64,000 nucleotides of DNA from Rhodanobacteraceae bacterium (GCA_036279455.1 DASUJD010000058.1:3548-67547), one strand, 5' to 3'; shown: positions 14,203-50,954, numbered from the stretch's first letter. Notes: generated from the letters alone by a model not told the origin. Numbers and translations are program-made.

Positions 14203-14236
14203 AGTGCTCATCAAACGCCCGATGTTTTACGCTCCT

Positions 14237-14299
14237 CCCGAGTCCCGAGTCCCGAGTCCCGAGTCCCGAGTCCCGAGTCCCGAGTCCCGAGTCCCGAGT
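14237..14299. repeat. Nine exact tandem copies of CCCGAGT (G-rich GGGACTC on the minus/transcribed-sense strand)
   Basis: Counted directly: 63 nt, no mismatch. Begins 1 nt after the TGA of the DUF4139 gene. Confidence 0.95.
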
Positions 14300-14300
14300 C

Positions 14301-32772: not shown

Positions 32773-32796
32773 CGCTTTCAACCGGGGATGGGGGAC

Positions 32797-32904
32797 GGGT
32801 AGTGGGGGCGTACTGACCCGACTTTTCCGCAACTTTGCAGGTCGCGAAAAGTTCGTTGTCCGGCACGCCGCCTCAAGGGTCCGGTGCTTGCGCCCCCGCT
32901 ACCC
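32797..32904. repeat. GTAG-headed inverted REP pair in the purM-purN spacer
   Basis: GGGTAGTGGGGGCG (32797-32810) versus CGCCCCCGCTACCC (32891-32904), 13 of 14 complementary. Inner imperfect hairpin CTTTTCCGC...GCGAAAAG. Confidence 0.65.
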
Positions 32905-32921
32905 ACTTCCAATTCCCATCT

Positions 32922-33980
32922 TCATGCAATCTGTACACGCGCATTGTTGCCGGCAACCACCACCTCGCCGATGGTCCAGCTTGCGAGGCCGGATTGCGCG
33001 AGCGCATCGCGTGCGGCGGTCACGTCACCGGGTGCGAGGATCAGGGTGAAGCCGATCCCGCAATTGAAGGTGCGCCACATTTCCGCGCGCGGCAGCTTGC
33101 CCTCGCGTTGCAACCAGTCGAACACGGCCGGCAGTTTCCATGTCGAGGAATCGATCGCGAGGCCGAGCCCGTCCGGCACCACCCGGATGATGTTTTCGCT
33201 GAGGCCGCCGCCGGTGATGTGGGCCATGCCGTGCACGACCGGGACCCGGGGCTCGGGACTCGGGACCCGCAAAAGCTCCAGGACGGGTTTGACGTAGATG
33301 GTCGTCGGCGCCATCAGGGCATCGGCCAGCGTCACGCCCCCGATATCCATGCCGAAGGGCGAACCCGCGCGTTCTACGATCTTGCGGATCAGCGAGTAAC
33401 CGTTCGAGTGTGGCCCGCTGGACGCGACGCCGAGAACCACGTCGCCTGCACGGATCGCACTGCCGTCGATCAGTTCCGATTTTTCCACTGCGCCGACGTT
33501 GAAGCCGGCGAGGTCGTATTCGCCGGGCGGATACATGTCGGGCATCTCGGCGGTTTCGCCGCCGATCAGCGCGCAACCGGCCAGTTCGCAGCCCTTGGCG
33601 ATGCCGCCCACCACCGCGACCGTGGTGTCCACGTCGAGCTTGCCGGTCGCGAAATAGTCGAGGAAGAACAGCGGCTCGGCGCCCTGCACCAACACGTCAT
33701 TGACGCACATGCCCACGAGGTCGATGCCGATGGTGTCGTGGCGGTTCAACTGCTGCGCGAGTTTCAACTTGGTGCCGACCCCGTCGGTGCCCGAAACCAG
33801 CACCGGTTCGCGGTATTTTTTCGAGAGATCGAACAGCGCACCGAACCCGCCGAGGCCGCCCATCACCTCGGGGCGCAAGGTTTTCGCGACCAGCGGCTTG
33901 ATGCGTTCGACCACCGCATTGCCGGCGTCGATGTCCACGCCCGCGGCGCGGTAGGAAAGGGCTTCGTCACGGGAGCTCAC
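32922..33980 (-). CDS. purM: Phosphoribosylformylglycinamidine cyclo-ligase (AIR synthetase)
   Basis: GTG 33980 gives [21 protein letters not shown]..., the usual PurM N-terminus. ...MAHITGGG.... The longer ORF to 34256 is not supported. Confidence 0.9.
33241..33268. repeat. Four degenerate heptamers (GGGACCC GGGGCTC GGGACTC GGGACCC) inside purM
   Basis: Read directly from the sequence. Translated in frame on the minus strand as ...[10 protein letters not shown].... Confidence 0.8.
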
Positions 33981-48397: not shown

Positions 48398-48540
48398 GGG
48401 ACCGGGGACCGGGGACCGGGGACCGGAGCTGCCGTGATGCGTACGCGCACTCGTGGTTGGTGCGCTTGATACATGGCATCAATAAAAAATCTGCCAGCTT
48501 GCGTGACTTTGCCGGTCCCCGGTCCCCGGTCCCCGGTCCC
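48398..48540. repeat. Heptamer-armed inverted-repeat element: (GGGACCG)4 - 87-nt core - (CGGTCCC)4, MITE/REP-like, no ORF
   Basis: Counted directly. Arms 48398-48425 and 48513-48540 are exact reverse complements (28 nt). Confidence 0.9.
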
Positions 48541-48551
48541 GGAGTTTTCGC

Positions 48552-50954
48552 ATGAGCGCCCAACCGAAAGACACCGCTCCGCCCGTGGAGATGGTCGAGT
48601 TCGAGATCGACGGCCATCCGGTCAGCGCGCCCAAGGGCTCGACGATCATCCAGGCCACCGATGCCGCGAAGATTCCGGTGCCACGTTTTTGCTATCACGA
48701 AAAGTTGCCGATCGCCGCCAATTGCAGGCAATGCATGGTGGAAGTGGAGATGGGTGGCAAGCCGGTGCCGAAGCCGCAGCCTGCCTGCGCGACTCCCGTC
48801 GCGGCGGGCATGAAGGTCTACACGCGCTCGCCGAATGCCATGAAGTGGCAGCGCAACACGATGGAGTTCCTGCTGATCAACCATCCGCTGGATTGCCCGA
48901 TCTGCGATCAGGGCGGCGAGTGCGAGCTGCAGGATGTTTCGATGGGTTATGGACGCTCGGTGACGCGCTTCACCGAGCGCAAGCGCAGCGTGACCGACGA
49001 AAACATTGGTCCGCTGGTTGCGACCGAGATGACCCGCTGCATCCACTGCACACGTTGCGTGCGTTTCGTGGGCGAGATCGCGGGCACCCATGAGCTTGGC
49101 GACATGAGCCGCGGCGACAGCCACGTGATCGGCACCTACATCGGCCGCACCATCAAGTCCGAGCTGTCCGGCAACGTGATTGACGTGTGTCCGGTCGGCG
49201 CGCTCACCGACAAGGTGTTCCAGTTCAAGGCGCGCGCGTGGGAACTGATCGCCAAGCCGTCGATCGGCTACCACGATGCGCTGGGTTCCAACCTGTGGCT
49301 GCATACCAAGTACGGGCAGACGCTGCGTGCCGTGCCGCGCGACAACGAAGCCATCAACGAATGCTGGTTGTCCGACCGCGACCGCTACAGCCACCAGGGT
49401 TTGTACGCGGAGGATCGCGCGCAGAGGCCGATGATCCGAAAGGGCGGCGAGCTGGTCGAAGTCGAATGGGATGAAGCCATCGCGTTCGTCGCGGACGGTT
49501 TGAAGAAGGTCGGCGGCGATGTGGCCGCGCTGGTCGCTTCGATGGCATCGTGCGAGGAAGGTGCGCTGCTTGCGCAATTGTTGCGCGGGCTCGGCAGCGG
49601 GCGCATCGACCATCGCCTGCGCGTGCAGGACTTCAGCGACGGTGGTCCGTCCGGTGCCGCATTCGAAATGCCGGTGGCGGACGTTGGCAAGGTATCGGCG
49701 GCACTGATCATCGGCTGCAATCCGCGCCATGAAATGCCGCTGCTTGGCCATCGGCTGCGCCACGCCAGCCGCCACGACGCGGCGAAGCATCCGGCATCGA
49801 ATCCGGCGCACTACGATATTTCCGCGGTGCAGGGCGCGAAGATCCATGCGATCAACCCCGTGCACTTCGATTTCAACTTCGACCTCGCCGGCGAAGTCGC
49901 GGTGGCGCCGCAACATCTGGTGGATGCTACGTTGCGGATGGCGAAGGGGTCGGGCGTGTCGCTGGACGAGCATGCGTTGGCCGATGCCGTCGCTGCGGCC
50001 CCTGATGACGCCGATGCGCGCTCGTGGGCAGATGCGTTGCGCAATGCGGCATCCTCGGTGGTAATCCTGGGCGACGCGGCCACCCAACATCCGCAGGCGT
50101 CATGGCTGCGCGTGCTGGCGCGCGGCATCGCCAGGGCCACCGGTAGTGCGTTCAACGAATTGCCGTCGGGCGCCAACGCCGTCGGCTTGGCACGTGTGGG
50201 TGCGCAGTCGCCCGGTGGGGCGAAAGCGATACTGGAAAATGCGCCGAAGGCGTTGATTACCTGGCAAACCGGCCCCCACGATGCGTTTTCGCCGGTCGCC
50301 TACGACAAGGCCAGCGAGGCTGCGGAGTTTTACGTCCACGCGGGCGCCTACGTCTGCGAAGGCGCCAGGCACACCGCCGATGCCGTGCTGCCACTGGGCT
50401 TGCCTCCGGAAATCGACGGCACCTACGTGAACGTCGATGGCGTCGTACAGGTAATCGCGGCGGGTTCGACCTTGCCGGGCGATGCGCGGCCGGGCTGGAA
50501 GGTATTGCGCGCGTTGGGGGCGGCGCTGGGCGTGAAAGGGTTCGACTTCTCTGACATCGGTGAGGTGCGTGACGCTGTGGGGGACGTGTCGGGACCGGGG
50601 ACCGGGGACCAGGAATCGGGGCAGCGATTGCCGACGCGTACATCGATACCGAATGGCATGGTGACGCGCGTCGCCACGGTCGGCATCTACCGCACCGATG
50701 CGGTGGTACGTCGCGCCAAGGCGCTGCAGGCGCACCCGCTGAATCGCGCGCCGGCCTTGCGCATCTGTGCGGACGATGCGCGTGCACTGGCGCTGCTGAG
50801 CGGCATCAAGGCCGACGTCAATGGCGTGCAATTGATGGTGGTTGTCGATGCCGCGGTGCCCAAAGGCTGCGCCTGGATCGAAGCGGGACACGCCGGCACC
50901 GGATCGCTGCCGCCGTACGGCGCGGCGCTGACCATCAAGGCAGTGGGCGCATGA
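48552..50954 (+). CDS. nuoG: NADH-quinone oxidoreductase subunit G
   Basis: 800 aa. N-terminal 2Fe-2S/4Fe-4S Cys clusters (...[19 protein letters not shown]..., ...[18 protein letters not shown]...). Confidence 0.95.
50591..50611. repeat. Three heptamers (GGGACCG GGGACCG GGGACCA) in frame inside nuoG
   Basis: Read directly: 21 nt translated as GPGTGDQ. Confidence 0.85.

Follow-up and report, generated by a model that had tools for sequence, protein, structure and literature searches.

The window analysed here, a stretch of 64,000 nucleotides from an uncultured member of the Rhodanobacteraceae, contains on its minus strand (32922..33980) a purM gene for AIR synthetase (phosphoribosylformylglycinamidine cyclo-ligase), which starts with GTG and encodes a protein of 352 amino acids. 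The gene was identified from its open reading frame and translation, from the Pfam domains AIRS (PF00586, residues 60-165) and AIRS_C (PF02769, residues 177-344), and from a match to the E. coli PurM structures 1CLI and 9JZW with an E-value of 8e-131. This full-length purM match is unique in the host assembly, which is 72% complete, and the window PurM is the sole member of its 90% cluster in the protein collection. Inside the gene, at 33241..33268 on the plus strand, lies an array of four G-rich heptamers (GGGACCC, GGGGCTC, GGGACTC and GGGACCC), which is evident from the exact sequence and was also detected by Tandem Repeats Finder (TRF) at 33240-33266 with a period of 7, 3.9 copies and 85% matches. 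The G-rich strand of the array is the template strand of purM and the mRNA carries the C-rich strand. The array-containing segment, read on the minus strand, corresponds to PurM residues 235-259, and the codons for residues 238-247 (33240..33269, minus strand) specify the array-derived peptide, which makes this part of the protein 7 residues longer than the ancestral connection.

The purM array has company in the window. A degenerate pattern of two units, GGGRCYCGGGRCYC, searched with at most one mismatch, matched the window 15 times where 0.67 matches were expected; none of 100 shuffles reached 15, and a chance origin of these matches is excluded. Among the window's arrays of the GGGACTC type the longest, with 9.3 perfect copies, is intergenic (14236..14300, minus strand; TRF), and an intergenic inverted pair, (GGGACCG)4 and (CGGTCCC)4, lies between nuoF and nuoG (48398..48540; TRF). 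In the spacer between purM and purN, two decayed inverted G-rich arms, GGGGACGGGTAGTGGG at 32791-32806 and CCCACTTCCAATTCCC at 32902-32917, are 75% complementary and 95 nt apart; they are probably what is left of an old pair with heptamer arms that lay immediately downstream of purM. From a perfect (GAGTCCC)n array, such as that of the relative L017, the purM array itself differs by three point changes, two of them synonymous (CGA to CGG) and one replacing serine by proline (TCC to CCC), which is consistent with an ageing copy that would now be poorly suited to slippage.

Between the motifs YVKxxL and AHxTGGG the window PurM has a connection of 18 residues, compared to 11 in E. coli. Among the 71 Gammaproteobacterial loci at which this connection could be measured, it has 11 residues in 53, 13 residues in 11 and is longer in 7. 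A preliminary description made from the DNA sequence had proposed that a heptamer block is translated on the minus strand inside purM and that the segment is about 7 residues (21 nt) longer than in the E. coli enzyme, whose sequence it also gave. The exact sequence and the open frame bear out the first proposal, and HMMER alignment to 1CLI/9JZW confirms both the E. coli sequence given there and the difference in length. The same description had spoken of an insertion of three heptamers, which is right for the net gain of 21 nt and wrong for the array itself, which has four units (28 nt), the usual size of the family.

In order to place the insert in the PurM fold, the structure was predicted with AF2 from an alignment of 74 sequences (mean pLDDT 85, pTM 0.85); an earlier model from a shallow alignment of 30 sequences had a pLDDT of 52 and was discarded. 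The accepted model superposes on E. coli PurM (9jzw_C) with TM-scores of 0.91/0.95 and an rmsd of 1.8 A. In this model residues 238-248, which comprise the insert, form a coil between a helix (residues 230-237) and a strand (residues 249-254) of the AIRS_C domain, so that the loop position suggested in the preliminary description corresponds, in the superposed prediction, to a coil of the C-terminal domain. In the numbering of the 1CLI sequence the insert falls between E238 and K239-D241. The two blocks that contain the insert have mean pLDDT values of 89 and 86, compared to 93-97 for the blocks around them in the C-terminal domain. Together, the open frame and the similarity of the model to E. 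coli PurM describe an in-frame insertion in a conserved gene, and according to the prediction the PurM fold is preserved despite it. We infer that the insert takes no part in catalysis; its position just 3-7 residues ahead of the TGGG motif and the conserved H250/H254 nevertheless makes some influence on the enzyme conceivable.

The host is represented by a metagenome-assembled genome (MAG) of 2.38 Mb with 64% GC (G000; related genomes are also given by G numbers), and the closest homologues with a name come from MAGs labelled Rhodanobacteraceae. In a census of tandem arrays with at least 3 perfect copies, 42 arrays of period 7 were counted in this genome, compared to 0-7 for each of the periods 5, 6 and 8-11. 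The family to which the purM array belongs, GGGAC[CT]N, accounts for 74 arrays detected by TRF, which are spread over many contigs and are mostly intergenic. Their units are ACCGGGG (36), ACTCGGG (19), ACCAGGG (9) and minor variants, and 46 of the 74 arrays have about four copies. About 18 convergent inverted pairs of family arrays, with the arms 60-200 nt apart, are present in G000; the purM copy is solitary and not part of such a pair.

Coding arrays were called with our own codon log-odds model, trained on 318 long ORFs, and not from annotation. By this approach 13 of the 74 arrays, in ten genes, were found to occupy an open frame and to have coding signal in either flank. Besides purM, single translated arrays flanked on either side by Pfam domains occur in a gene for an aceE-type E1 (peptide GTGDRRPGT), in leuS (peptide RDSGLGARDSE) and in a gene for a lysA-type decarboxylase, and an array of the GGGACCG type is located in the window near the C-terminus of nuoG (50591..50621, plus strand), with a Pfam match on the upstream side only. 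In polA (contig C6, 50910-51048; Pfam domains on either side) a whole inverted pair together with its 28-residue core is translated, giving a peptide that begins with PGTGDRGP, and it lies in frame within the linker that joins the 5'-3' exonuclease domain to the 3'-5' exonuclease domain. In purL, too, the two arms of a pair are translated (contig C84, 35880-35944), again between Pfam domains. In sucB, the gene for the E2 component of 2-oxoglutarate dehydrogenase, the perfect arrays (GGGACCG)4 and (CGGTCCC)4 are in frame (contig C34, 28129-28351) and occupy the linkers before and after the E3-binding domain, which belongs to the host protein, with Pfam domains on either side; inverted pairs can thus surround coding sequence that is truly the host's. 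Two further arrays, apparently in frame, belong to ORFs of contig C16 (3644-3671, peptide AGTRDKGPGT) and contig C72 (5141-5169, peptide TGPGTGHRVP).

Since 7 is not a multiple of 3, each array yields one and the same peptide with a period of 7 residues in all three frames. Thus GGGACTC is read as GTRDSGL on one strand and, as GAGTCCC, as ESRVPSP on the other, and GGGACCG is read as GTGDRGP or, on the opposite strand, as RSPVPGP; neither strand of these two family units contains a stop codon. Peptides of this kind, rich in G, P, S, T, D and R and also containing V and E, suit flexible loops and linkers. As arrays of the family thus give a stop-free and loop-friendly peptide in every frame, they can settle in permissive loops of essential enzymes.

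Relatives of the host were compared at the same place in PurM. In 8 of 24 genomes of the genus an array or its remnant occupies the identical codon position, the connection then having 18-27 residues, and in the remaining 16 the connection has 11 or 13 residues. Perfect inserts are (GAGTCCC)5 in G003, (GAGTCCC)4 in G002 and (CGGTCCC)4 in G012, and the insert of G011 consists of GAGTCCC, GGGTCCC, GAGTCCC and GAGTCCC. The window's genome and G001 have degenerate four-unit arrays, and G007 and G008 retain decayed remnants. Among 120 metagenomic homologues the connection measures 13 residues in 53, 18 in 22, 11 in 18, 27 in 8, 23 in 7, 26 in 5 and other values in a few; the lengths 11, 13 and 18 make up 93 of the 120 and the others range from 15 to 41. 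The inserts of these homologues encode two types of peptide, SRVPSPE and SPVPGPR, with intermediates such as VPGPGSR. A Rhodanobacteraceae genome of a different genus (MAG SMAG_U16366, locus L031:3001-4077) has a connection of 25 residues with partly decayed heptamers of the CAGCCCT type at the PurM site, which suggests an independent filling of the slot. A hairpin or palindromic element in purM was considered as well and rejected: when the inserts of 8 species were folded, z-scores relative to shuffles ranged from -1.6 to +3.1 and that of the window insert was +0.9.

The distribution of carriers was examined on two trees. When the purM tree was built without the columns of the insert, the distribution of carriers required 5 changes, of which well-supported branches force at least 3, and in a tree of PurM and LeuS (1197 columns) it again required 5 changes, at least 4 of them forced in this way. 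A single clade of carriers was rejected by the AU test on the latter tree (p = 1e-38), and the purM tree is also against it. In one clade the insert is present in G011, G012 and G008, which branch off one after the other, and is missing from the innermost pair, G004 and G020, a pattern suggesting that the insert was first gained and later lost. The overall distribution may also fit one ancient gain if losses were numerous. Either way, the phylogenies indicate that slot occupancy would need at least 4-5 gains or losses and not one lineage-specific event. The preliminary description had raised the question of whether the PSPEPRV segment is lineage-specific; this holds insofar as the segment is absent from most Gammaproteobacteria and from 16 of the 24 congeners, and it does not hold in the sense of a single event, as carriers are scattered.

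Which unit fills the slot was then compared with the units found elsewhere in the same genome, counted as three-unit matches with at most one mismatch to GGGACTC or GGGACCG. G002 (237 GGGACTC and 10 GGGACCG) and G011 (116 and 0) have purM arrays of the ACTC type, G012 (15 and 26) has a perfect array of the ACCG type, G003 (356 and 287) a perfect ACTC array, G000 (32 and 53) a mixed array, and G008 (0 and 0) a decayed insert. In these eight related and therefore non-independent genomes, the purM unit thus largely tracks the dominant unit of its genome, the match being imperfect in that both units are present in G000 and G003. The inserts of the close relatives G011 and G012 are equally long and differ from each other at two fixed positions in each of their units (CCCGAGT versus CCCCGGT), a difference for which independent point mutation does not seem a plausible cause. 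Genomes rich in the family have perfect arrays in purM, and decayed ones are found in genomes that lack it. Taken together, the way in which the unit follows the genome and the pattern of perfect and decayed copies would point to homogenisation or replacement of slot content. Beyond the genus, heptamer units are patchily shared across families of the order: G037, which belongs to another family, has 230 three-unit matches to GGGACTC and 323 to GGGACCG, and most other families of the order have none.

A second slot is offered by leuS. Its loop AETFYR...W has 7-8 residues in most relatives and contains four-unit arrays in G000, G002, G003, G005, G006, G007 and G012, the units being perfect GGGACCG in G012, of the ACTC type in G002 and of the ACCC type in G005 and G006. 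Carriers of leuS arrays and carriers of purM arrays overlap only in part. The leuS slot thus behaves like the purM slot, which supports a model of refillable slots within the bounds of a small sample of related genomes.

From these data the purM block is best explained as a tolerated in-frame array of a genome-wide family of G-rich heptamers that resides in a permissive loop as a passenger and not as an adaptation, a reading to which we assign a probability of roughly 0.85. That the block is a tolerated in-frame member of such a family had already been proposed in the preliminary description, and the 74 family arrays, the open purM frame and the fold kept in the model uphold the proposal. According to this reading, an array of the dispersed GGGAC[CT]N family would have come to lie in purM at a connection between helix and strand that already varies in length among bacteria. 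With a net gain of 21 nt the frame would be kept, with it the fold of the enzyme, and the insert, presumably neutral, would persist as a passenger. The PurM loop would then act as a slot that appears and disappears within the genus, changes in length and is filled anew, and its content would be homogenised or replaced from the current pool of repeats in the genome. Candidate routes of refilling are slippage, which within the reading frame of purM would require steps of three units, ectopic copying or template switching from other arrays, and re-insertion.

How arrays arise in the first place may be connected with a protein-coding gene. Genes of the family PF05635 are present in 9 of the 24 genomes of the genus, and 15 of 23 PF05635 genes examined in the Lysobacterales are flanked on both sides by inverted arrays of 7-8-mers with about 3-5 copies or more. 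The flanking unit is GGGACTC in G003 (contig C16, L141 1432-1871) and G006 (contig C369), GGGACCG in G037, GGGAGCA in G012, GGGAGAC in G004 and G007, GGGAACG in G010 and in Rhodanobacter spathiphylli B39, and GGGAAT[CG], which includes the Xanthomonas unit GGGAATC, in Tahibacter sp. UC22_41. Further PF05635 loci between convergent heptamer arrays in the Lysobacterales are L138, L144, L146, L147 and L151-L159. The association between arrays and PF05635 genes across the Lysobacterales is strong. In G003 the array unit nearest to the PF05635 gene reads GGGAG and is located 7 nt before the apparent GTG start, and it may serve as a ribosome-binding site. PF05635 proteins resemble the Avd accessory protein of diversity-generating retroelements (PMC10053308). 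In the literature searched, no description of heptamer repeats flanking PF05635 genes was found.

It is possible, if doubtful, that the purM array and the other arrays were left behind as solo footprints by an active element or process with a PF05635 gene at its centre, a gene that codes for a four-helix-bundle protein similar to 23S-rRNA-IVS proteins and Avd and is located between convergent arrays. Such a system would seed or renew arrays at many sites, and among those in essential genes only arrays in permissive loops would survive; this proposal concerns origin and is compatible with a passenger array in the PurM loop. The flanking of 15 of the 23 genes by inverted arrays on both sides argues for it, as does the presence of the gene in all of the most array-rich genomes (G003, G002, G006 and G037), and the turnover of units between related species implies a process that acts between loci. 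On the other hand, the genome from which the window comes, 72% complete, gave no match to PF05635, and no such gene was detected in G011, with 116 arrays, or in G017, which has 43 arrays and is 99% complete. A one-to-one correspondence between the unit flanking PF05635 and the dominant counted unit of the genome was considered and rejected, as it is true for G003, G006 and G037 and fails for G012, G004 and G007. A classic MITE as explanation of the inverted pairs was rejected as well, because the cores of the 18 pairs in G000 are unlike each other and unlike full PF05635 cassettes and because the sucB pair flanks the host's E3-binding domain; transposase, target-site duplication and mobility signature were not seen. 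Should a PF05635-linked system be at work, the PurM and LeuS loops would be long-lived slots rewritten with the current unit of the genome, the G-rich heptamers of Xanthomonas would be tied to a protein-coding element, and the concerted switching of units between related species would be explained. The association of PF05635 with arrays, those of GGGAAT[CG] included, offers in any case a lead to the origin of repeats of the Xanthomonas type.

Other explanations would have the array kept for a function. A role at the level of nucleic acid, for instance modulation of transcription or replication by a G-quadruplex on the purM template strand, is conceivable from the 28-mer GGGACCCGGGGCTCGGGACTCGGGACCC, which has four G-tracts (GGG, GGGG, GGG and GGG) separated by loops of 3-4 nt, and from the preference of the family for four units, as in Xanthomonas, where G-quadruplex formation was demonstrated in vitro (PMC4692102). 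We consider such a role unlikely, since the orientation of coding copies is inconsistent, the G-rich strand being sense in 8 and antisense in 5 (the purM array among the latter), since most relatives have no array at the purM site, and since the insert is in decay in genomes without the family, such as G008. We judge it very unlikely that the extra loop is an adaptive feature which selection on the peptide preserves, for example as a proline-rich segment for docking or stabilisation. Peptides similar to RVPSPESRVP do recur across many homologues and the loop was modelled with fairly high confidence, but conservation is seen at the level of the DNA repeat, synonymous positions included, related species differ in the peptide (SRVPGPESRVP in one of them), and the connection varies from 18 to 27 residues among carriers and lacks the insert in 16 of 24 congeners. 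A contingency locus, in which slippage by one unit would switch purM off and on and cause phase-variable purine auxotrophy, has in its favour that heptamer arrays are in principle prone to slippage and that relatives hold 4-5 perfect copies, but it is highly improbable given that purM is a single-copy housekeeping gene, that the window copy consists of just four imperfect units, that all purM inserts in relatives are multiples of 3 nt, and that 40 of 40 full-length purM matches in relatives and 120 of 120 homologues are in frame and free of stops, with the bias of protein databases towards intact genes to be kept in mind.

The translated arrays show that a bacterial family of simple-sequence repeats that is usually treated as intergenic also shapes proteins of core metabolism. 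They mark, as a map drawn by nature, where PurM, LeuS, PolA, SucB and other proteins tolerate insertions, and they raise the question of which process homogenises repeat units across dispersed loci.

G-rich heptamers were described by Rehm et al. (2015; PLoS One, PMC4692102) with the units GGGAATC in Xanthomonas and GGGGA(C/T)T in Nostoc. The Xanthomonas repeats show a preference for four units, form 70-75 inverted pairs per genome and are mostly intergenic, 7-11% of them at least partly overlapping an ORF, and they form G-quadruplexes in vitro (PMC4692102). The family in G000 shares with them the 7-nt unit with a tract of three or four G and the bacterial order, the tandem arrangement with four units favoured (46 of 74 arrays here, and 3.9-4 copies in purM), the dispersed and mainly intergenic location with depletion in ORFs (13 of 74 arrays in frame here), and the frequent convergent inverted pairs (about 18 in G000). 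It differs in its units, which are GGGACTC, GGGACCG and GGGACCC. On these grounds the repeat family of G000 matches G-rich heptamers of the Xanthomonas type. Whether the repeats are translated is not a topic of Rehm et al. (2015), whose article does not contain the term 'in-frame', and the recurrent occupation of one loop, the switching of units between species and the flanking of PF05635 genes, all found here, are likewise not part of it (PMC4692102). In the literature searched nothing was found on translated heptamer arrays. What was already known is thus the family of G-rich heptamers (Rehm et al., 2015) and, from Rickettsia palindromic elements (RPEs), the presence of in-frame repeat DNA in housekeeping genes; enzyme loops that different members of a genus refill with different translated heptamer units, and the link to PF05635 in the Lysobacterales, appear to be undescribed in the literature searched.

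Two other kinds of repeat invite comparison with the heptamers of G000, one by its period and the other by its location. Heptanucleotide simple-sequence repeats are known as the STRR repeats of cyanobacteria, and long repeats of this kind in prokaryotes were reportedly the subject of a general survey by Mrazek and colleagues in 2007. As in G000, these are tandem repeats of period 7 that are over-represented in free-living bacteria of high GC content; we know of no description of refilled protein-loop slots in these surveys. RPEs, palindromic elements of 100-150 bp with a conserved sequence, are said to have been described by Ogata and colleagues in 2000 as selfish DNA inserted in frame in protein-coding genes. 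They resemble the heptamer arrays in that repeat DNA lies in frame in housekeeping genes and adds a peptide without destroying the protein. The purM insert differs from them in being a single tandem array of 28 nt with a hairpin potential not above that of shuffles, and the closest likeness to RPEs in G000 is found in polA and purL, where whole inverted pairs are carried in frame.
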